Positions 16,244 through 25,039 of a DNA stretch of 64,000 nt are shown piece by piece. Made by a program: the position numbers and the translations under genes. Position 1 is the stretch's first letter. Each line of letters begins with the position of its first letter. The notes below the pieces were generated by a model. That model saw only the letters and a list, made by a program, of their open reading frames with translations, had not been told where the DNA came from and did no database searches. Source of the stretch: a virus (Duplodnaviria > Heunggongvirae > Uroviricota > Caudoviricetes); the IMG/VR virus record IMGVR_UViG_3300046542_000361, one strand, 5' to 3'.

Positions 16244-16455
16244 GCTGCGCTCCTACCTTCGACATGCTGACGCGCCAGCGCGTCGAGACCTTCGCCTTCG
16301 GAGATCGAAACGACGCCGTAATCCTCGCAGCCGCAGGTCAGGCGCCGGTTCGGCTTCACGATGGAGAACGGCACGGTGTTAACCACGGTGACGTGGTTGC
16401 AGCCGGTGCATTTCAGGTAGCTGCGAAAGGTCGGTGCTTCACGCTTCTTGGACAT
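16240..16455 (-). CDS. zinc-ribbon small protein (CTGC…CGCEDYG)
   Basis: RBS AGGAGAT. Confidence 0.55.
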   Translation of the reverse strand: MSKKREAPTFRSYLKCTGCNHVTVVNTVPFSIVKPNRRLTCGCEDYGVVSISEGEGLDALARQHVEGRSAA

Positions 16456-16999
16456 TGGCGATCTCCTGCTTCTGTTGTTCGATCTGATCCATCGTCAGCG
16501 ACCAGAGCACCTTGTCGCCGCCGCGCAGCACGGCCATCGCGTCTTCCTTTTCCTTCAGGAAAAGCGGGGCGAAGCTCGGCGCCAGCACCGCGACGTTCTT
16601 GGTGTTGTCCTTGATATCGGCGATCTTGACCGTCTGAACGGCCCACGGGGCGAGCGCCAGGCGCTCAACGTTGATCTGGTGCCGGTGCTTACGATTGCCG
16701 GCCGCCTGGCCGATGTTGGTAAGGTAGTAGAGCCCCTCGGCGATATCTTCGTCGAACTGAGCACGGATCACCTCAAGCGTGACGCCGGTGTCTTCGACCG
16801 TGTCGTGCAGCCAGGCCATGCAGACCTGCTGCCAGCTGTGATCGGGCAAAGCCTGAACAATCTCAGCAACGGCACGCGGATGAACGATGTAGGGCTCGTT
16901 GGTGAACTTGCGACGCTGGTCTATGGCGTAATGCGCCGCAGTCGCGAAAGCCTCGGCGCGCGCTATCATTTGCTCGCCGTATGCAGAGTAGTAAGCCAT
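16439..16999 (-). CDS. HD-domain hydrolase of the RelA/SpoT hydrolase type (small alarmone hydrolase-like; start MAYYSAYGEQ at 16999)
   Basis: HPRAVAEIV…WLHDTVEDTGVTLEVIRAQF matches the SpoT / Mesh1 (p)ppGpp hydrolase HD signature (HPL.VA…LLHD.VEDT). RBS AGGAG. The motif lies upstream at 17013-17037. Confidence 0.65.
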   Translation of the reverse strand: MAYYSAYGEQMIARAEAFATAAHYAIDQRRKFTNEPYIVHPRAVAEIVQALPDHSWQQVCMAWLHDTVEDTGVTLEVIRAQFDEDIAEGLYYLTNIGQAAGNRKHRHQINVERLALAPWAVQTVKIADIKDNTKNVAVLAPSFAPLFLKEKEDAMAVLRGGDKVLWSLTMDQIEQQKQEIANVQEA

Positions 17000-17072
17000 G
17001 CTGATCTCCTGATAATCAATCAATGTTTATTTATCGCACAGCGCGAGCAGGATTGCGGTAGGATCGCTGCGG

Positions 17073-17321
17073 CTAGAAGCGGCCGAACAGCGGATGCGTC
17101 TCGTATTCGTTGATGGAGATCAACGTCAGCTCGTCCATGATGATTATCTTCGGATTGGTGCCGGCGAGGGTGTCCGCTACCATCTTTGCAGCCTGGGACT
17201 TGCCCCACCGCCTGGCCGACGAAACGATCATCGCGCCACGGCGATTGCCATACCGATCAATCATAGGCTCGATCTCGGCAAGCATCCGCTTTTGGTAGTC
17301 CTTGAGCTCGGGCTGGGCCAT
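17073..17321 (-). CDS. small P-loop-like protein (…SSARRWGKSQ…IIIMDE…) ending in …NEYETHPLFGRF
   Basis: Start at MAQPELKDY with RBS GGAGA. Carries the C-terminal GRF tail. The motif lies upstream at 17368-17394. Confidence 0.5.
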   Translation of the reverse strand: MAQPELKDYQKRMLAEIEPMIDRYGNRRGAMIVSSARRWGKSQAAKMVADTLAGTNPKIIIMDELTLISINEYETHPLFGRF

Positions 17322-17401
17322 GTGAATCTCCGTCGTTGATCTGCTGATAGCGCCTCGAGCGGTGACGGTCAATCAGTTTTTACTGACCGTCACCGCGAAA
17401 T

Positions 17402-17650
17402 CTATGCAGCCTTGGCAGCCTGTTGTTGGTCCATCCAGGCGAGAAAGGCTGCATCGCTTTTGGTATCGGTGCTCTTCAGCGCCTCGCCGACGGCGCGCAT
17501 CAGTGCACTGCGTTGATCCTCGGGATAATCGGTCAGCGGCTTCACCGGACACTCAGAGGCGTCAGGATTGAGCGCGAAGAACTGCCGCGTCATCGCGGTG
17601 AGGAATGCATTGCAGGCGAACTCGAGGCGCTTACGATTGATCTTTTGCAC
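17402..17650 (-). CDS. hypothetical protein (GTG start, no obvious SD)
   Basis: ORF track. The sequence is protein-like. Confidence 0.4.
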   Translation of the reverse strand: MQKINRKRLEFACNAFLTAMTRQFFALNPDASECPVKPLTDYPEDQRSALMRAVGEALKSTDTKSDAAFLAWMDQQQAAKAA

Positions 17651-18044
17651 GAAGGTTGGCTTTCGTCATGATGAAGTTGATCGTCGCCCGGCTCCATTTG
17701 ACCGACCGGACAGGCGTGATGTCACTATTGTCCAGCACCTTCTTGATATCCGCAAGCGAGGCGCCCGGATCATCCTTCAGGATCTCCTCGATGATCGGCA
17801 CGACCAGAGCGTAGCGCTTGCTGGCCTCGAGCTTGGATGCAACCGCGGCTGCCTTTGCGGCGACCTTGGTGCGCTCGGCCGGCGTCATGCGGACACGCAC
17901 CAGCCGTTTACCCGGCAGAATCTCCTCGATCAGGTCCGGAAACTTGGTGAGACAGTTCCGGATAGCGGCGATGATCGTCTCGCCTGTGCGCTGCTCAAGC
18001 GGTATCGTATCGAGGTGATCGCGCAATCTCTTCCTATGCGGCAT
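17631..18044 (-). CDS. hypothetical protein (from MPHRKRLRD)
   Basis: Internal ATG. The track N-terminus is Arg/Pro-rich. Confidence 0.45.
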   Translation of the reverse strand: MPHRKRLRDHLDTIPLEQRTGETIIAAIRNCLTKFPDLIEEILPGKRLVRVRMTPAERTKVAAKAAAVASKLEASKRYALVVPIIEEILKDDPGASLADIKKVLDNSDITPVRSVKWSRATINFIMTKANLRAKDQS

Positions 18045-18360
18045 TGGCGTTCGCGGCAGGGATATCGGCCGCCCCCTGGTTGATGGCAACGGCGAGAATC
18101 GAACTTTGCAATTCCGGCGTCGCGGCGACAATGCTAAGCACCATCAGCGTTTGTCCATTGAGCAAAGCCTGTTTGTCTTCTGTCGTCATCGAGGCATGCA
18201 TTTTCTGCACACCAGCTATGCAAATACCTTGCTGGAACAATTCGGTCTTCCCGTCCTTACGAATGACCAACCCACAGTCGCCGTCATTGAGGTGAAATGC
18301 CCGTGTAGCGGGCTCCTGCCCGATTGCGGCCGTAATGTTCTCAAGGGCGTTCGTGATCAT
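18034..18360 (-). CDS. hypothetical protein, first gene of a minus-strand operon
   Basis: ATG with RBS AAAGGAATA. Divergent from the plus-strand gene at 18626. Confidence 0.55.
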   Translation of the reverse strand: MITNALENITAAIGQEPATRAFHLNDGDCGLVIRKDGKTELFQQGICIAGVQKMHASMTTEDKQALLNGQTLMVLSIVAATPELQSSILAVAINQGAADIPAANANAA

Positions 18361-18380
18361 TTTATTCCTTTCATACTCAT

Positions 18381-18410
18381 AACTTTTAGGGATGCTGTTA
18401 CCTAAAAGTT
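18381..18410. promoter_or_regulatory. perfect 10-bp palindrome AACTTTTAGG-N10-CCTAAAAGTT (operator-like) in a divergent promoter region
   Basis: Read directly. Further partial dyads (TAGTGACTAA…TAGTCAGTTAGAC) follow at 18410-18450. Confidence 0.5.
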
Positions 18411-18625
18411 GTTTAGTGACTAAGTTAAAATAGTCAGTTAGACATCGGGATGCATGACTATTTTAGCGGTTTCTCTTGTGCGCCGATTCGCCGTGGGTTA
18501 TCTGACGGTTGCACAAAGTTCGTGCCTCTCTCCACACAAGAGAAAATGATGGGTTGCGTGATCACCCCACGGTAGCTTAGGAATGAAGTCCTAAGAGCAT
18601 AACATGTTGAAAAGGAAATACCTGA

Positions 18626-18856
18626 ATGCCCCGGCGAGCCTTTGATGTAATCGCGCATGAACTGAAAGCCTCCCTCCTCGAGCACACGGCTCATTTCCTC
18701 AAGGAGCGCGGCCTGCAATTTGATTCACCCGGCTACCATGCCCAAGCGTCCTTCGGTCTCGAGGATGCAGCGCGAGAGCTCATCATCTTCGGCGCAAACC
18801 TCTCCCCCGACTATCAGCAATTGACCCCTGCCCACAACATCACAGTCGCGGCCTAA
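18626..18856 (+). CDS. hypothetical protein (76 aa), a rare plus-strand gene
   Basis: ATG with RBS AAGGAAA. Followed by a hairpin terminator. Confidence 0.55.
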   Translation: MPRRAFDVIAHELKASLLEHTAHFLKERGLQFDSPGYHAQASFGLEDAARELIIFGANLSPDYQQLTPAHNITVAA

Positions 18857-18868
18857 GTCCCTAAATGT

Positions 18869-19162
18869 CTAGGGGCGCGCATCGGCGCCCCTTCCTTTCC
18901 AGTCACGGTTGATTTTCTCCATACCTGCGCGCGCTAGCTCACCTATGAAGTTAGGATGTTTTTCCCAGAACTTCAGCTTGCGCTCACATATCACCAATTC
19001 CTTCTCGGCCTGCCAGCGCTCGATCGGCGATCCGCGCTCAGCAAAGAAGGTCAGCGCCCGCTTATTTCCGTAATGGCGCAGATACGCTTTGGTGCCGTCC
19101 ATCTTGTCGACGGAAATATTGCTGGCGCCGCTGCCGACGCTTTCATCGTATATTAATGCCAT
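18869..19162 (-). CDS. hypothetical protein
   Basis: RBS GGAGAG. Confidence 0.55.
   Translation of the reverse strand: MALIYDESVGSGASNISVDKMDGTKAYLRHYGNKRALTFFAERGSPIERWQAEKELVICERKLKFWEKHPNFIGELARAGMEKINRDWKGRGADARP
18871..18892. terminator. hairpin AGGGGCGC-gcatcg-GCGCCCCT between convergent genes (bidirectional)
   Basis: 8-bp perfect stem. Overlaps the 3' end of the 18869 gene. Confidence 0.5.
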
Positions 19163-19278
19163 GCTCTAGCTCTCCGTTGTATAACAGAAGAACTATCGCG
19201 CATTTATATTAGGCGATCTATTGGCGCTTGTCGGCAGATGATCCGCCATATTCCCTGAATATTATCTGAACACGAAAT

Positions 19279-19304
19279 AAGCGGCGCATGGGATGCGCCG
19301 CCTT
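19279..19304 (-). terminator. hairpin GCGGCGCAT-ggg-ATGCGCCGC after the rtcB operon
   Basis: Read directly. U-rich tail on the minus strand. Confidence 0.5.
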
Positions 19305-19333
19305 GGTCTGTTGCTTAAACGTTATATCTCGCC

Positions 19334-20791
19334 TTACGAGGCAATCGCCTCCGGCTTCTTTTTCTTCGCGCGCTGCCACTTCATTTCGCCGGCCATGATC
19401 GAGCCTCTGGGCTGGATGCGATCGACAACGTCGGCCAGGCCGTGCTTTGTGATCTGCGCCTGCACCTGGTCGGCGCTCTTGTAGGCCGAGGGAAACTCCG
19501 ACGGGTCGGCAAAGCCGGTGTAGAAGCGAACGTCGAGCCCGGCCGTCTCCTTGATCATCTGGGTCGACACGTCGCGCGGGCTCAAGCCGCGGTCGTCTGA
19601 GCCGTATTCAGCGGCCAGGCGCTTCATATGTGCCGTGCGTGACAGATTGCGGCCGGCGCCGTGCGGTGCAAAGCCGAGTGCGTCCTCGTTGTTGGCGTGC
19701 TTGGTGACGAGGATCGGCTGGGCCATGTTGAGCGGGATCAGCGTCAGGCCGCGGTCGTCAGCTGCGAAGCCGTCATAGGACGGTGTTGCGCCCTTGCCGT
19801 GGTAGTAGAGCCCGTCCGCGCGCCGGAAGACGAAGTTATGCTCGTTCCAGACCTGGTCGATGATCGCATTGCCGAGGTAGTGCGCGATCAGCTGGTGAAT
19901 GCCGAAGTGATTGTATTTCGTCCACAGCCGGACGATCTGCATGGCATCCCAGTAAGCCTTGCCGTCTTCGCTGTTAGCGTCGATCCAGGCATTGTGCAGC
20001 GGGATTCGCGGCGCGACGATGCGCGTGTGCTTCTCTGCAACACGCTTGCCGCGCTTGTAGAGCTGCGCGCCGAGGCCGCGCGAGCCGTGATGCGTGACGA
20101 TCGCCATCTGCTTCGTGCTCTCGAGCTCGCCAACGAAGAGGAAGTGATTGCCGTCGCCCTGGGTCATGAAGTGCTCGACGGCGATATCCTCGAGGCCGCG
20201 CAGGAACGGATTGCTGTCGAACTTGGCGACGATCTGACCGAGGATCGGCGTGAACGCCGACGGAATATCCTTGTCGTTCGTCCGAGCGCCTGGTCCGAAG
20301 TGCGTTGCCTTCATCGCGGCCGTCATCACCTTGCCGACGTCATCGTCGCGCTTGAAGACGCTCATGGCGACGGAGCAGCAGATATCGGCCGAGTGGAAGC
20401 CCGGATGGATCGCGTCTTTGGTCGCCACGACGCCACCGACAGGGATGGTGCCCATCTGGCTGCCGGAAGGGCAGGCGTCAGGCATAACCGCGCCCTTGAC
20501 GATCGTCGGCGTGCGCAGCAGCGCATCCATGTGCGCAATAACCGACGCAGTGTTGAGGATCTCGTCCTCGGTCTCCGGCTCGATGAAGCGGGCGAACGGA
20601 ATGGAGTTCGTGCGCAGCGGCACGCCCTCGGTCACGGCCGGCATGACGCGCAGCGTGAAGAGGTGGTCGATGATCTGCCGATCGCTTTTACCTTCGGCGC
20701 GCATCGCGTTGGCGATGGGCAGAGCCTCTTGAAACCAGGCGCCGGGCTCGAGGCCCCACGAAACGAGGGTCTTTCCAGAAATATTGCTCAC
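19334..20791 (-). CDS. rtcB: RtcB-family RNA 3'-phosphate / 5'-OH ligase
   Basis: GDGNHF, HHGSRGLG and C-terminal HGAGR motifs are diagnostic of RtcB. 485 aa. GTG start with RBS AAAGGAAAG. Confidence 0.85.
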   Translation of the reverse strand: MSNISGKTLVSWGLEPGAWFQEALPIANAMRAEGKSDRQIIDHLFTLRVMPAVTEGVPLRTNSIPFARFIEPETEDEILNTASVIAHMDALLRTPTIVKGAVMPDACPSGSQMGTIPVGGVVATKDAIHPGFHSADICCSVAMSVFKRDDDVGKVMTAAMKATHFGPGARTNDKDIPSAFTPILGQIVAKFDSNPFLRGLEDIAVEHFMTQGDGNHFLFVGELESTKQMAIVTHHGSRGLGAQLYKRGKRVAEKHTRIVAPRIPLHNAWIDANSEDGKAYWDAMQIVRLWTKYNHFGIHQLIAHYLGNAIIDQVWNEHNFVFRRADGLYYHGKGATPSYDGFAADDRGLTLIPLNMAQPILVTKHANNEDALGFAPHGAGRNLSRTAHMKRLAAEYGSDDRGLSPRDVSTQMIKETAGLDVRFYTGFADPSEFPSAYKSADQVQAQITKHGLADVVDRIQPRGSIMAGEMKWQRAKKKKPEAIAS

Positions 20792-21082
20792 TTATGCTTT
20801 CCTTTGCTGTCTGCGCCGAGCGGCACTCGTCAATTGGATAAAGTGACGAAATGCACGCCAGGCCTCTTTGGTGTATGGCCCTTGTTCGGGCCGGTATTGG
20901 TTGCCGTCCTCACCGAGGAACACGTCAAACTCGCCGTCATAGGTCGCGATGACGAAGGTCATGCCGAAGCCACCCTGGTTCATCCATGAGATCAACTGGG
21001 TGGCGTCCGCCTTTGTGCGCTCTTGAAGACCGAGGACGATCGAGTGGCCGTCGCCGAGGGCCAAGACGAATTTGTCGGCCAT
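20792..21082 (-). CDS. hypothetical protein immediately upstream of rtcB
   Basis: ORF track. Coupled to rtcB. Confidence 0.5.
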   Translation of the reverse strand: MADKFVLALGDGHSIVLGLQERTKADATQLISWMNQGGFGMTFVIATYDGEFDVFLGEDGNQYRPEQGPYTKEAWRAFRHFIQLTSAARRRQQRKA

Positions 21083-21249
21083 CAGTCGAACAGCCGAAGA
21101 ATGGCGAATGCAGCCTGTTTCTCGCGGTCGCTCAGCTTATCATTGTGCTCAAGCAACCACTCGTCGAGGCTCATCGGCTCGAGGTCGGGCCGGCTGTTCA
21201 TCATCGCGTTGGCGATTTTGTCGAGGGCTGCGAATTGCTCGTTAGTCAT
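21082..21249 (-). CDS. hypothetical small protein (55 aa, MTNEQFAALDK…)
   Basis: Internal ATG. The track's 172-aa frame is Arg/Ser/Thr-rich and overlaps the 21242 gene. Confidence 0.45.
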   Translation of the reverse strand: MTNEQFAALDKIANAMMNSRPDLEPMSLDEWLLEHNDKLSDREKQAAFAILRLFD

Positions 21250-21715
21250 CGGAACGCCCTTCCGCCTCGGCTTTGTCGGCGCAGTCCGGGCAGCGGCCGT
21301 TGTAGCCATCGCCACCGTCCGCATATTCCTCGCCGCAGTCGCGGCAGGTGTTCTCGTCGTCTTCCGTAACGCCGGCCTCGTCATTGCGAACCCAGATCCA
21401 AGCCTGAACAAAGGCCCCAGGATCATCGCCAGGCGAAACGAAGGCGTCATCGTCGACCTCCATTTCATCGTCAGCCTGGGTCTGCAGATAGGCGCGGTAG
21501 GGATCGGCCGGATCGAAGTCAGCGCGGACCTTGCCGAAGCGATCGAGGATCGCCTGCAGCTCGTCCTTGGCCGCGGTGACGGTCTGAATTGAGCTGGCAT
21601 TCAGCGCCTGATTGCCACTCATCAGCGTGTCGAGCGCCTCGCGGTAGCGGCTGATGCTCGAAGCGAGGGCTGCCTCCACACCGGTCATCTGTTTGTCGTC
21701 GAGGTTAATCCACAT
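21242..21715 (-). CDS. acidic protein with C-terminal zinc ribbon (CRDC…CPDC)
   Basis: Strong RBS GAGGAGAAA. Confidence 0.6.
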   Translation of the reverse strand: MWINLDDKQMTGVEAALASSISRYREALDTLMSGNQALNASSIQTVTAAKDELQAILDRFGKVRADFDPADPYRAYLQTQADDEMEVDDDAFVSPGDDPGAFVQAWIWVRNDEAGVTEDDENTCRDCGEEYADGGDGYNGRCPDCADKAEAEGRSDD

Positions 21716-21726
21716 TCGCTTTCTCC

Positions 21727-22011
21727 TCAGATCGGGTTGACGTGAGCGACACAGTTGACGCCATCGGGCACATGCCAGTTGAGGGCACCGGCGACATTCG
21801 CATCGGGCACGAGGAAGAAGCGGAGATCTTCCGGACCAGCCTCATCAGCCGTTTCCGATGACAGAACGCCTTCAAAGACGGCAGACCATCCGATCGTGAT
21901 GTCAGAGGCCTTCCAGATGTCGAACGCCTCCTGTGGCGTGCCGGCGCGCACAAAGAGGTCCATGCTGTCGCCATTGTTGTCGCTGCCGTTGATGAAATAG
22001 AGGTTGGTCAT
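21727..22011 (-). CDS. hypothetical protein (from MTNLYFINGSD)
   Basis: Internal ATG at 22011. Confidence 0.5.
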   Translation of the reverse strand: MTNLYFINGSDNNGDSMDLFVRAGTPQEAFDIWKASDITIGWSAVFEGVLSSETADEAGPEDLRFFLVPDANVAGALNWHVPDGVNCVAHVNPI

Positions 22012-22018
22012 TGGCGTC

Positions 22019-22300
22019 TCACATACCGCCGAGGCCGAAGCCGCCCGGCGTGCCAGCCTGGACGCCGATCGACGGGTCGCTGAAATTGCGGAAGCCAACG
22101 ACGGGAATGTCGCAGCGCCGGTCAAACTTGCCGACTGGTGCGGTGCGCTCGCAGTCGTTGGCCGACTTATAGGGATGGCCGGCGATCCGGTATTCGTTGC
22201 GCTTCAGCGTCGTGTATGCCGACGATGTGGCGTGCTCCGAAACGCTCGAGCAGGATACGGCGAGCAAAGCCATGCCCGTCACGATGACGAGGTTCTTCAT
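22019..22300 (-). CDS. small lipoprotein (signal peptide plus lipobox LLAVSC)
   Basis: MKNLVIVTGMALLAVSCSS. RBS AAGGAAA. The motif lies upstream at 22355-22379. Confidence 0.6.
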   Translation of the reverse strand: MKNLVIVTGMALLAVSCSSVSEHATSSAYTTLKRNEYRIAGHPYKSANDCERTAPVGKFDRRCDIPVVGFRNFSDPSIGVQAGTPGGFGLGGM

Positions 22301-22370
22301 GATGGATTTCCTTCTGCTGAAACTTCGAAGCGCCTTATGGGATGCGCCGCGGAGTAAGTCAATAATGATT

Positions 22371-22401
22371 GACCGACGGAGACACGATATCCCCGTCGGT
22401 C
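22371..22401 (-). terminator. hairpin GACCGACGG-N13-CCGTCGGTC downstream of the 22409 gene
   Basis: Read directly. Confidence 0.45.
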
Positions 22402-22408
22402 ACGCGGC

Positions 22409-23203
22409 TCACGCGCCGGCCGCAGGTGCCGGCTGGGCGAAGATTTCGCGCAGGCGCTTGGCGACGGTCGAGTTCTCGTTGAACACCAGGGTGTTCTTCT
22501 GGCGCGTGGCGATCTTCGTCGCTTCGAAGAGCGTCATCACCTGGCCCGACTGCGATTGCGCCGTGCCCTGCTTGTAGCTCGCCTTGAACATCGTCGTGAT
22601 GTCCGTGCCGGTGATCGTCTTCTTGTCGTCCAGCAGCTTGAAGGCTGCCTTGACGTAGACCGACGGCTGCTTGCCGGCGTGCAGAGCGGCGAAGAGATTT
22701 TCGAACTTCTCGGCGATCTTCTTCTGGCTCGGCAGGGCAGCCATCACAGCCGTCTTGTTCGCGGCGAGGGCGTCATCGTCCATCGTCGACGCATCGCCTT
22801 CGAGCACGAAGACCTTCGCATCGAGCGAGGCCATGTCGCGCGGCGTGCGCGGGGTGGAAGCTGCACGCGGCGCGCGGGGCGTTGCGGCCGACTGACTGCG
22901 GGCGGCAGCAGCTGCTTCGGAAGGCTTTTCGGCGACGTCCGTTTCGCTCGTCTGTTCGGCATAGCCGTCTTCACGGTCGAGGGACATTTCGAGGTCGTCG
23001 ACGTTGACGTTTTCGAGATCCTCTTCCGTCACGGTCGAGCCGTTGTCGTCGGCTGCCGAGGTTTCGACGATCTCTTCGATTTCATCGGAGATCTCATCGC
23101 CGGCAAGGCCGTCGAGCTCCAGATCGTCGAGCAGGTCGTCAAGAGCGGCTGCAGTCGAGCCGGCGAGGGTTACGTTAGAGGTCGATGCGAGCAACTTTGC
23201 CAT
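22409..23203 (-). CDS. hypothetical protein with a highly acidic N-terminal half (about 264 aa from MAKLLASTS)
   Basis: ATG at 23203 with strong RBS AAAGGAGACA. Long D/E-rich segment (…DDLLDDLELDGLAGDEISDEIEEIVETSAADD…). Confidence 0.55.
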   Translation of the reverse strand: MAKLLASTSNVTLAGSTAAALDDLLDDLELDGLAGDEISDEIEEIVETSAADDNGSTVTEEDLENVNVDDLEMSLDREDGYAEQTSETDVAEKPSEAAAAARSQSAATPRAPRAASTPRTPRDMASLDAKVFVLEGDASTMDDDALAANKTAVMAALPSQKKIAEKFENLFAALHAGKQPSVYVKAAFKLLDDKKTITGTDITTMFKASYKQGTAQSQSGQVMTLFEATKIATRQKNTLVFNENSTVAKRLREIFAQPAPAAGA

Positions 23204-23292
23204 TTCTGTCTCCTTTTCGAGTTCGTTCAAGTCGTTGTTTTCGCTTGCATTGTCTTTATAGCGCGTCATTGATTGGAACTCGGTAGGATAAT

Positions 23293-23850
23293 TCAGGCAG
23301 CCGCTGGGATTTGGCTGGCGATTTGCGGCCGCTCGACAAAGCCGAACCGACGCGCGTTGAAGAGGCTCTGCATCATGCAGTTGACGTCGTAGTCCGCGGC
23401 GTGTGCGAGGGCCGGATCGTAGTCGACGTCACAGGCAAGGCAGAGCTCGCGCAGGTTCGGCTTCTTACCGTCCGGCGTCGCCCAGCTGTATTGCATGGTG
23501 TCGATGATCTCGCGCTTCGGCATGACCAGACCCACGCGCTTGAACTCGTAGGTGACGAAGTCAATATCGAACGCGGCGTTGTGCGCGACGATGATATCCG
23601 CCTTGGACAGATACGCGTGGAGCTTGGGCGCGACCAACTCCCAGGTCGGCATGCCAACCAGGTCTGCGGACGAGATATTGTGGACGGCCTGCGCCTCCTT
23701 GGCGATCGAGCGCTGCGGGTCGATCCGCTGGTTGAAGTCGCGCAAGAGGGACTCGCCGCGATACAGGCCGACATAGACTTCGACGAAGCGGTGATCGCCA
23801 AAGTCGAGGCCGGTGGTTTCAGTATCGAAGCCTGCTTCAATCGGATCCAT
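23293..23850 (-). CDS. DEDDh 3'-5' exonuclease (DnaQ / epsilon-like)
   Basis: Exo I FDTETTGL, Exo II HNAAFD, Exo III HAADYD. RBS AAAGGAATGG. Confidence 0.8.
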   Translation of the reverse strand: MDPIEAGFDTETTGLDFGDHRFVEVYVGLYRGESLLRDFNQRIDPQRSIAKEAQAVHNISSADLVGMPTWELVAPKLHAYLSKADIIVAHNAAFDIDFVTYEFKRVGLVMPKREIIDTMQYSWATPDGKKPNLRELCLACDVDYDPALAHAADYDVNCMMQSLFNARRFGFVERPQIASQIPAAA

Positions 23851-24160
23851 TTATCCATTCCTTTATTCGTTGCAGATCGGCAGGGCTGATGCCCTTGTGT
23901 GCAACAATGATATCGAAGATCGACCAGGCGTTCGGGTGGCGACGCTTGGTGCGATCGTAGTCGTTCCAGTGGTCATTCATCGCGTGGGCGCATTGCTCGG
24001 CCATAGCGCGCCCAGGGAAGCGAATCTCGGCCTCGGGTGATAGCTGACGCGTCAAATGGGTGATCGTGCGCCCACGCCGCTCACAGAGTCGCCAGGAACC
24101 ATCTTCCTCTTGGCGCGCTCCCCAGGCCATTAGCCGAGGCTCCGGCAATACTCCACGCAA
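23837..24160 (-). CDS. hypothetical protein (start uncertain)
   Basis: ORF track. Confidence 0.35.
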   Translation of the reverse strand: MRGVLPEPRLMAWGARQEEDGSWRLCERRGRTITHLTRQLSPEAEIRFPGRAMAEQCAHAMNDHWNDYDRTKRRHPNAWSIFDIIVAHKGISPADLQRIKEWINGSD

Positions 24161-24357
24161 GCCTTCCGGGCTTCGGCGAGGGTAGAATAGAGTCCGCTGA
24201 AAACGTAGCGGTCGCGCTGCATGACGCCAGCAAGATACGGGTCAATCGTCCGGTCGACGTGATCGACGCTCATGATGGCGACGCCGTTGTTCAGGGTCAT
24301 GCCTTGGCCCTTCTTGAGGGTAGGCGACTTCCAGTCGACCATTTCAATGACTGTCAT
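24130..24357 (-). CDS. hypothetical small protein (from MTVIEMVDWK)
   Basis: Internal ATG. The N-terminal extension is Arg-rich. Confidence 0.4.
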   Translation of the reverse strand: MTVIEMVDWKSPTLKKGQGMTLNNGVAIMSVDHVDRTIDPYLAGVMQRDRYVFSGLYSTLAEARKACVEYCRSLG

Positions 24358-24463
24358 GGCGCCACCTGCGACAAAACGAGCATGATGACCGAGTAGACGG
24401 TAAAGGCTGCGATGATTGAGCCCCACAGGATCAGCCGGCACTCTTTCGTGTGCCGCGGCGTTC

Positions 24464-25039
24464 TCAGACGTGAATCCATGTCTTTTCCTCCAAGATATTA
24501 ACGATGGTGGATCGCGCAACGCCGTGCTTCTTCGCCAGCACCGACGGGCTATCTTTCGAGGCGCGGATCTCAATGATCTCCGGCACTGTCAGTTTGGCGT
24601 TCGAATTCTGCGAGCCGCGGCCGGTCTTCAGGCCGTTGGCGTGGGCGTGCTTTTCGTTGTCACGGCCGGTCGACCATTCCAGCTGATATTCGCCCCACTT
24701 CTCGATCAGCTCCTGTGTCGGCTGCTTGAGATAATTGTGGCTCTTGTCGCCGTCGATATGGTTGACCTGCGGCAGGTTGAGCGGGTTCGGCAGGAACGCC
24801 AGCGCGATGACGCGATTGACGAGGACCGACTTCGTGACGCCCTTGAAGGTCAGGTTGAAATAGACTCGGCCGGTCGCCTTGTGCGTCCGGAACTTGACCG
24901 AGTGAACCTCGGCGCTCATGCGCTTGTAGTCAGCAGACGCATACTTGCGACGCCAGATGGTGCCGTCTTCGCGAGCAATGATGTAGCGGCAGGCGATCGC
25001 CTCGAGGATCCACGCGTCTTTTGGGAACTTGTCGGTCAC
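24464..25039 (-). CDS. HNH homing endonuclease (free-standing)
   Basis: VNHIDGDKSHNY HNH motif. GTG start overlaps the upstream stop (GTGA); RBS GAAGGGG. Confidence 0.7.
   Translation of the reverse strand: MTDKFPKDAWILEAIACRYIIAREDGTIWRRKYASADYKRMSAEVHSVKFRTHKATGRVYFNLTFKGVTKSVLVNRVIALAFLPNPLNLPQVNHIDGDKSHNYLKQPTQELIEKWGEYQLEWSTGRDNEKHAHANGLKTGRGSQNSNAKLTVPEIIEIRASKDSPSVLAKKHGVARSTIVNILEEKTWIHV

Follow-up and report, generated by a model that had tools for sequence, protein, structure and literature searches.

A divergent RtcB ligase of apparent host Rtc origin, standing alone in a Rhizobium phage

RNA ligases of the RtcB family are known from several settings. In bacteria RtcB belongs to the Rtc system, which is arranged as rtcBA/rtcR in E. 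coli and as rsr-yrlBA-rtcBA in Salmonella, and transfer RNA (tRNA) fragments are described as inducers of the bacterial Rtc operon (PMC7790460). A divergent subgroup that occurs with PrfH, RtcB2, reverses ribotoxin damage (PMC9304027), and the RtcB of phages has been proposed to repair cleaved tRNA (PMC7824862). The phage ligases of this kind (phrog_1075), found in mycobacteriophages, in Proteus and Bacillus phages and in jumbo phages, are likewise stand-alone genes among small accessory genes. The proposed logic is the same as that of phage T4, where Pnkp and Rnl1 reseal the tRNA-Lys cut by the host anticodon nuclease PrrC; there the ends are healed and then sealed by an ATP-dependent ligase, and the repair has been proven experimentally. 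RtcB, on the other hand, would join 3'-phosphate and 5'-OH ends directly, and its repair role in phages is a proposal. Here we describe an rtcB gene (19334..20791, minus strand) in a window of 64,000 nucleotides, which is the whole stretch analysed from the IMG/VR virus record IMGVR_UViG_3300046542_000361 (Caudoviricetes). Its product is a real, full-length and divergent RtcB, and the best explanation of the gene, to which we give a probability of roughly 0.55, is that it encodes an active stand-alone ligase of host Rtc origin that would repair RNA during infection.

The gene encodes 485 amino acids and begins with a GTG codon directly after the stop codon of a gene for a 96-residue protein, with the Shine-Dalgarno sequence AAGGAAAG upstream. 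The protein scores 98.7 bits against Pfam PF01139 (gathering score 27) and matches phrog_1075, 'tRNA splicing ligase', from end to end (E 2e-105). The motifs GNHF, HHGSRGLG and HGAGR are located at residues 214-217, 234-241 and 377-381. Sequence searches against the RtcB chains of P. horikoshii, T. thermophilus and human gave weak matches, with E values of 1e-7 for the protein alone and 1e-15 when it was used as a clade profile. An AlphaFold (AF2) model built from 20 clade members reached a predicted local distance difference test score (pLDDT) of 86 and a predicted template modelling score of 0.81. When this model was compared with the PDB by Foldseek, the top 16 matches were all RtcB (E 7e-24 to 1e-15, 454-502 aligned columns, 16-22% identity). 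The best full-length structural matches were the P. horikoshii and human enzymes (4DWQ, 1UC2, 7P3B and 8ODO), with a template modelling score of ~0.6 and a probability of 1.0 at 19-22% identity and a root mean square deviation of 5-6 Å.

Two further assignments were tried and rejected. Residues 1-95 resemble GxxPGxW helical modules but gave no Pfam match at E<=10 as a separate N-terminal domain; because Foldseek aligns ~465 of the 485 residues to RtcB, they are taken as part of the RtcB architecture of the clade. The RtcB2/PrfH models are the best NCBIfam models for the protein, but it reaches 71 of the required 407 bits and 51 of the required 272 bits, far short of their cut-offs, and no PrfH was seen beside rtcB.

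The catalytic site was examined in an alignment of nine sequences, consisting of the window protein, two bacterial and two phage members of its clade, E. coli RtcB (from NC_000913.3) and three canonical phage RtcBs. With E. coli RtcB the window protein shares ~25% identity together with the fold, the metal ligands, the histidine nucleophile and the strand-binding arginine. Ten catalytic-site positions were found to be invariant across all nine sequences. Among them H234 and H318 (H185 and H281 in E. coli; H234 and H329 in P. horikoshii) are ligands of metal M1, D136 and H216 (D75 and H168; D95 and H203) are ligands of M2 and C139 (C78; C98) is the cysteine that bridges the two metals, these roles being known from PMC9745838. 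H377 of the HGAGR motif (H337; H404) is the nucleophile, and the Asn and Arg contacts to the 5'-OH strand, described in PMC8051266, are represented by N215, R238 and R381 (N167, R189 and R341 in E. coli). The remaining position is N319, which corresponds to N282. All M1 and M2 ligands and His404 of the P. horikoshii and human enzymes have equivalents in the phage protein.

An earlier note on this DNA had called the product a full-length RtcB from its HGAGR, GNHF and HHGSRGLG motifs, and the Pfam, phrog_1075, AF2 and Foldseek results agree. It had also held that mutated catalytic residues would speak against its proposal; every one of them was aligned and found to be conserved. The gene is under purifying selection, with a ratio of nonsynonymous to synonymous substitution rates (dN/dS) of 0.14 against the related phage RHph_Y2_11 (Y2_11), and the protein is 70-93% identical across six phages of the group by all-against-all BLASTP, where the 93% belongs to the 'tRNA splicing ligase' of RHEph10. 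The observation is real but ordinary, as this is an already-annotated RtcB in a known phage group: an identical protein is present in the JGI data as 'RNA-splicing ligase RtcB', and orthologues are annotated as RtcB in RHEph10 (RefSeq record), Y2_11, N1_10, N1_15, V1VFA-S, B1VFA and X66.

The one point that goes beyond the existing annotation is a clade-wide replacement of the residues that contact guanine. In P. horikoshii RtcB, Glu206 contacts N1 and N2 of the base and Lys480 contacts O6 (PMC9745838). The dependence of the enzyme on GTP rests on these contacts. Neither residue is conserved in the window protein, where F219 takes the place of E. coli E171 and M466 that of K407; hhalign independently pairs F219 with E171 at high confidence. 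In the nine-sequence alignment the first column reads F/F/Y/Y/F in the clade against E in all four canonical sequences, and the second reads Met in five against Lys in four. The same was observed among the bacterial members of the clade, with Phe or Tyr at the first position in 77 of 79 and Met at the second, within the motif G-x-[IVL]-M-[AG]-G, in about 77 of 80. Further clade-specific changes around the active site are MPDACP[AS]G instead of MPDxHxG, HPGFHSADICCS and THHGSRG. Q211, D213, H235, W315, E317 and W472 are clade-specific as well and are candidates for lining the base pocket. The change from Glu to Phe/Tyr and from Lys to Met is therefore a trait of the whole clade, comprising the alphaproteobacterial Rtc enzymes and their phage derivatives, and not of the phage copy alone. 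Most phage RtcBs, such as those of MarkPhew, Privateer and Hobo, are in contrast canonical and keep both the Glu and the Lys. The replacement was not found discussed in the RtcB papers that were read. We consider it possible, though with a low probability, that RtcB of this clade may work with a nucleotide that is not GTP, ATP being one example, or make no distinction between bases.

The clade was traced to bacterial Rtc loci. A search of a big database returned more than 6,000 relatives, and a scan of one genome per species gave at least 585 stretches that encode one, the best 80 of which were used for the locus analyses. These 80 are almost all from Alphaproteobacteria and include Rhizobium phaseoli, R. 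aethiopicum and R. vallis at ~49% identity. A divergently transcribed RtcR was found in at least 38 of the 80 loci (Pfam PF06956 5e-76 with a sigma-54 AAA+ domain; flank clustering), while a Ro60/TROVE protein is encoded upstream of rtcB in about 30. In R. phaseoli ATCC 14482, Pararhizobium polonicum and a Mesorhizobium, Rfam models placed a YrlA Y RNA between rsr and rtcB; the locus stretches with rtcR and rsr(Ro60)–YrlA–rtcB are L055 3645-3757 (R. phaseoli ATCC 14482), L062 3162-3294 and L098 2968-3098. In Methylobacterium and Bradyrhizobium the rtcB of the clade stands alone in ordinary chromosomal surroundings. Because its bacterial members sit in rtcR, rsr–YrlA–rtcB loci, the clade is the RtcB of the alphaproteobacterial Rtc repair system, with a layout like that of Salmonella rsr-yrlBA-rtcBA.

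Compared with the bacterial system, the phage copy is the ligase alone, without the Rtc regulator or the partners RtcA cyclase, Ro60 and Y RNA. No RtcR, the sigma-54 activator that has a CARF-like sensor domain, is encoded in the gene unit to which rtcB belongs or in its flanks within the window, and the unit holds no gene of the size of Ro60 or RtcA, although not every open reading frame (ORF) of the window was scanned for these two. In the complete relative Y2_11 none of RtcA, Ro60, Pnkp or an RNA ligase is annotated. ARAGORN found no tRNA in the 64-kb window, and Rfam gave no family at the gathering threshold over the same 64 kb and none at E<=1 over 16-26 kb. These last results bear on whether the ligase could finish a programmed cut-and-join of the phage's own RNA, for instance a tRNA with an intron or a transcript that is split. 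In archaea and animals RtcB acts as the ligase of tRNA splicing (PMC10630183), and HNH homing-type endonuclease genes are located near rtcB, but besides the lack of tRNA or Rfam matches in the window, no splicing endonuclease is annotated in the relatives and the sole ARAGORN call in Y2_11 falls inside a ribonucleotide reductase gene and is probably spurious. Such phage-RNA splicing is hence unlikely, and to us scarcely probable at all. The Y2_11 call is a 90-nucleotide tRNA-Gly on the minus strand (38254-38343 of L003) within the gene for the ribonucleotide reductase alpha subunit, and the group is otherwise without tRNA genes.

RtcB was found in 210 phage records. The alphaproteobacterial type to which the window RtcB belongs is common to Rhizobium, Mesorhizobium and Cellulophaga phages: besides the present group it occurs in the Rhizobium myoviruses TM21B and TM39, in Cellulophaga phages and in a T7-like Mesorhizobium phage, with full-length copies of 45-49% identity. 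In all four unrelated groups the gene lies among small early-type genes. In the T7-like phage the gene is split in two, within the early region and immediately ahead of the one for RNA polymerase. The window RtcB is closer to bacterial members of the clade (57-60% identity) than to these other phage members (about 50%), which argues for repeated and independent capture from hosts. A scan of viral contigs with the single RtcB protein as query returned three close relatives. As a side observation, the T7-like copy, in Mesorhizobium phage Lo5R7ANS (L019 4004-5199), is annotated as two consecutive coding sequences and lacks the first ~60 residues. It has a tRNA-Leu on one side and the gene for the phage RNA polymerase on the other, and may represent a copy that is frameshifted or in decay.

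The phage itself was placed by megablast of positions 17000-25000, which returned ten Rhizobium phages from GenBank, the nearest being RHEph10 (88% identity, 85% coverage) and RHph_Y2_11 (87%). The window thus comes from a Rhizobium siphophage or phage-plasmid of ~117 kb belonging to the RHEph10/RHph_Y2_11 group. These relatives are siphoviruses of 115-117 kb with T5-like and lambda-like tail genes, and their own genes include Pol III alpha, a sigma factor, rIIA/rIIB and plasmid genes of the ParA/ParB/RepC type. RHEph10 has been treated among phage-plasmids (PMC7969092). Close relatives of the proteins studied here are located on contigs of 115-122 kb in Rhizobium, Ensifer and Pararhizobium assemblies, one of them recorded as an R. 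beringeri plasmid. That the element is probably a phage-plasmid makes a protective effect on the carrier cell a serious alternative to a benefit for the lytic phage. In that case RtcB would be expressed while the element is carried as a plasmid and would shield the cell against ribotoxins of competitors, such as bacteriocins and contact-dependent toxins that cut tRNA or ribosomal RNA (rRNA), or against its own toxin-antitoxin RNases. The plasmid genes and plasmid-sized contigs given above are in line with it, as are the host sigma-70 type of the candidate promoter and the putative lipoprotein encoded by the first gene of the unit (both given below), lipoproteins being a class that is often expressed by prophages. 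It is weakened by the presence of RtcB of the same clade in phages, the T7-like podovirus among them, whose examined stretches carry no annotated plasmid genes. We regard a lysogen benefit as rather improbable; it is compatible with repair during infection.

The rtcB gene is the last of six tightly packed minus-strand genes encoding 93, 94, 157, 55, 96 and 485 amino acids. All six have a coding-like GC content at third codon positions (GC3) of 0.71-0.84, and dN/dS is 0.06-0.43 where it could be computed. The unit is bounded by two hairpins which are both kept in RHEph10, Y2_11 and N1_10. The upstream one (22370..22402, minus strand; 15-bp stem, terminator-like, fold energy z = -2.9) lies just past the stop codon of a gene for a 286-residue protein and divides that gene from the unit. 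The downstream one (19279..19303, minus strand; z = -3.2) resembles an intrinsic terminator with an 11-bp stem and a T-rich tail and begins 30 nucleotides after the rtcB stop codon. A candidate sigma-70-type promoter, TTGACT-N17-CATAAG (22334..22362, minus strand), was read from the sequence; it ends 33 nucleotides upstream of the ATG of the lipoprotein gene, is invariant in four RHEph10-like phages and was not listed by the promoter scan as it falls below the -10 rule of the tool. The transcript of the unit is predicted to run from 22333 to 19279.

We noticed in addition that the 14-mer GCGGCGCATCCCAT occurs at both ends of the unit (22350..22337 and 19301..19288, minus strand). One copy falls within the candidate promoter; in the terminator hairpin that follows rtcB, the second copy makes up the 5' arm together with the loop. 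Beyond these two, no exact copy of the core GCGCATCCCA exists in the 64 kb; RHEph10 and Y2_11 have it at the corresponding two positions, and CGCATCCCA is retained even in V1VFA-S and X66. The repeat could act as a regulatory site, or mark where a cassette was recombined.

The neighbours of rtcB were compared across six phages, with an all-against-all BLASTP of their clusters. The unit opens with a gene (22019..22300, minus strand) that has a good Shine-Dalgarno sequence, GAAGGAAA, and encodes a 93-residue putative lipoprotein, so named from sequence features: its N-terminus, MKNLVIVTGMALLAVSC, looks like a signal peptide with a lipobox (…LLAVSC, with AVSC lipobox-like). It is present in RHEph10, Y2_11 and N1_10 and missing from V1VFA-S and X66. 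The second gene was listed as an ORF at 21727..22125 but its most probable start is the ATG at 22011, which makes a protein of 94 residues (21727..22011, minus strand). This protein is under very strong purifying selection (dN/dS 0.06-0.07) and is more conserved than RtcB, with 96% identity in N1_10 and 83-86% in X66 and V1VFA-S, where RtcB is at 70%, yet it has no counterpart in RHEph10 and Y2_11, which carry other genes in the slot. No family match was found for it in NCBIfam or PHROG.

The third gene (21242..21715, minus strand) encodes a 157-residue protein with a C-terminal CxxC…CxxC zinc ribbon, which matches phrog_6739, a family of unknown function, at 1e-87 and DZR weakly (E 0.03). It was observed in all six phages compared (48-87% identity) and in all ten related Rhizobium phage records, one to three genes upstream of rtcB, and is the sole neighbour kept across the RHEph10/V1VFA-S/X66 group. 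Its 30 relatives all belong to this phage lineage. It is not found beside RtcB of the same clade in the other phage families (three unrelated phages) or in bacteria, and its linkage to rtcB is for this reason attributed to common descent.

The two genes between the zinc-ribbon gene and rtcB encode orphans of 55 residues (21082..21249, minus strand; predicted helical, GC3 0.77) and 96 residues (20792..21082, minus strand; GC3 0.71, dN/dS 0.43). The former overlaps the end of the zinc-ribbon gene by 8 nucleotides, and the start of the latter overlaps the stop of the former by one base. Against its Y2_11 homologue the 55-residue gene gave a proportion of nonsynonymous differences of 0.18 and of synonymous differences (pS) of 0.81, at which synonymous sites are saturated, indicating purifying selection. 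Among 50,697 phage records, tblastn found both proteins only in Y2_11/Y2_17_1 besides this phage, and a search of 5.8 billion proteins gave five relatives of the 96-residue protein, each encoded on a fragment or on a contig of phage size. Neither ORF is present in RHEph10, N1_10, V1VFA-S or X66, all of which have RtcB; the slots upstream of rtcB are instead filled by unrelated ORFs of 44 and 93 residues in RHEph10, 45 and 134 in N1_10, 91 and 120 in V1VFA-S and 122 and 121 in X66. Against Y2_11, pS is 0.56-0.81 for the two small genes and 0.24 for rtcB, and this part of the unit has therefore had a different history, which points to a mosaic origin.

These observations bear on whether the six genes might form an RNA-repair module, in which the small proteins or the zinc-ribbon protein would serve RtcB as an archease-like activator or specificity factor. 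The overlapping or abutting stop and start codons, the shared pair of terminators and the constant position of the zinc-ribbon gene upstream of rtcB in every related Rhizobium phage would fit such a module. However, most relatives with RtcB lack the 55- and 96-residue genes, the pS values indicate mosaicism, and the zinc-ribbon protein is limited to this lineage. None of the five upstream proteins matched archease (PF01951) in Pfam at E<=0.1, and no informative family match was found for them in Pfam, NCBIfam, PHROG or PADLOC. The 55-residue protein had no match of any kind in the first three of these, and the 96-residue protein none in all four. An AF2 model of the latter (pLDDT 85, built from five sequences) matched no PDB fold better than E 0.26, and the 50 matches listed include no archease. 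Archease is thus ruled out for the two small neighbours by the family scans, by their distribution and, for the 96-residue protein, by the fold search; the phage enzyme, unlike the P. horikoshii and human ones, is without an archease partner. Some bacterial RtcBs function without archease (PMC4604427). A conserved partner was also sought in the flanks of rtcB in six related phages, three unrelated phages and 80 bacterial genomes, where only RtcR and Ro60/YrlA were seen to recur, and these in bacteria only. Two recurrent 'families' of ~660 residues in the flank comparison were rejected as antisense-ORF artefacts of crude ORF picking. The module reading is largely refuted for the two small genes, a cofactor role of the neighbours being unlikely and in our estimate very much so: they are real coding, lineage-restricted orphans and not cofactors, and the unit as a whole is not a repair operon but a mosaic of accessory genes in which RtcB is the stable end.

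Several claims of the earlier note on the unit can be judged from these results. It had put rtcB at the distal end of a seven-gene operon; the distal position stands, while the number of genes between the two conserved hairpins is six. The lipoprotein that it listed was recovered as the putative 93-residue product, whereas of its several zinc-ribbon proteins there is just the one at 21242..21715. The two small genes upstream of rtcB, which it had picked out, are indeed coding, as judged by their GC3 and by purifying selection. It had reported seeing no archease motif in them, in agreement with the Pfam scan, and its suggestion that they could nonetheless be an archease-like cofactor or a specificity factor, to be checked by comparison with archease, fails on their patchy distribution and on the sequence and fold searches.

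The rtcB gene is located in the accessory region of the phage genome, which resembles places where host-interaction genes gather, a resemblance that goes no further than association. In V1VFA-S and X66 a pair of NAD+ salvage genes, nicotinamide phosphoribosyltransferase (NadV) and NadM/Nudix, follows within one or two genes after rtcB (L010 1234-3725 in V1VFA-S and L011 523-3017 in X66, by record annotation), and rIIA/rIIB lie a few kb upstream of rtcB in the relatives. Upstream of the unit a DEDDh exonuclease of the DnaQ/RNase T family is encoded (23293..23850, minus strand; Pfam RNase_T 8e-22), which also matches the PADLOC models PDC-S48 and Cas-associated DEDDh. Together with the 286-residue protein (phrog_5235), which has many acidic residues in its N-terminal part, it is kept upstream of the unit in all relatives.

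This exonuclease and an HNH nuclease upstream would be compatible with an action of RtcB on DNA, in which it would act during the replication or repair of the phage by capping or joining DNA ends that carry a 3'-phosphate; in vitro, E. coli RtcB guanylylates DNA 3'-phosphate ends and ligates 5'-OH DNA (PMC8051266; PMC10630183). The bacterial members of the clade, however, sit in rtcR/rsr/YrlA loci devoted to RNA repair, and no conserved tie of rtcB to DNA-repair genes was seen across phages, so that DNA-end capping is unlikely, as improbable in our judgement as splicing of phage RNA.

Two more genes of this region were observed downstream of rtcB. A candidate small alarmone hydrolase of 194 residues (16439..17023, minus strand; Pfam HD_4 and the N-terminal part of TIGR00691) lies 2.3 kb downstream and consists of a RelA/SpoT-type HD domain only; it is annotated as 'metal-dependent phosphohydrolase' in the relatives, and in X66 an annotated 'RNA ligase 2' adjoins the upstream HD phosphohydrolase. 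A lone ORF of 76 residues (18626..18856, plus strand) is found inside the long run of minus-strand genes, in a 500-nucleotide stretch without a good minus-strand ORF, and an opposite-strand gene is annotated at the matching place in Y2_11 and N1_10.

The identity and fold of the enzyme, its intact active site, the purifying selection on it, its origin and its lack of conserved partners are established by the results above. We infer its activity, its substrates and its benefit to the phage, and the preferred explanation of repair during infection would run as follows. In the hosts the gene answers to the sigma-54 activator RtcR, often with Ro60 (Rsr) and the YrlA Y RNA as its partners, and the phage copy would have shed this regulation and these partners. 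It would now be expressed as the last gene of the six-gene accessory unit from the apparent host-type promoter, with the other five as unrelated accessory genes on the shared transcript. With two Mn2+ and a nucleoside triphosphate, the ligase is predicted to join RNA termini with a 2',3'-cyclic phosphate or a 3'-phosphate to 5'-OH RNA ends through a covalent His377-nucleoside monophosphate intermediate. Its substrate would be host tRNA or rRNA, possibly also phage transcripts, cut during infection by metal-independent RNases that leave cyclic-phosphate and 5'-OH ends; candidates are anticodon nucleases, HEPN RNases, MazF-type toxins and ribotoxins of the colicin or contact-dependent inhibition (CDI) type. 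Translation could in this way be maintained without reliance on the inducible sigma-54/RtcR Rtc response of the host.

Several points weigh against this explanation. Many of the defence effectors that cleave tRNA, those with PIN and Toprim nucleases, are expected to leave 3'-OH and 5'-phosphate ends, which RtcB cannot join. The phage copy could be redundant, given that the host Rhizobium itself encodes an RtcB of the same clade (49% identity). The window holds no pointer to the nuclease that would be opposed, and the link to genes of the anti-defence type is one of guilt by association. With the guanine contacts lost, the cofactor and possibly the chemistry would be less certain than for a canonical RtcB. 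No published experimental test of a phage RtcB as counter-defence was found in the literature. A repair or counter-defence role of phage RtcB, which the earlier note had put forward as a countermeasure to host anticodon nucleases, is nevertheless plausible and reasonable, and is already in print.

As found, the gene matters little, phage RtcB genes being common and annotated, and the unit serves as a warning that tight gene packing in phage accessory regions does not amount to a functional operon. The phage and its host are well suited for testing the repair idea, as the RtcR-regulated RtcB of the same clade in the host allows redundancy and timing to be separated genetically. The lost guanine-specific contacts, furthermore, pose a concrete biochemical question on cofactor use by RtcB. 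If another nucleotide were used, this would be a cofactor switch within a well-studied enzyme family, and the repair of RNA by the phage could be decoupled from the GTP pool, which stress responses alter.

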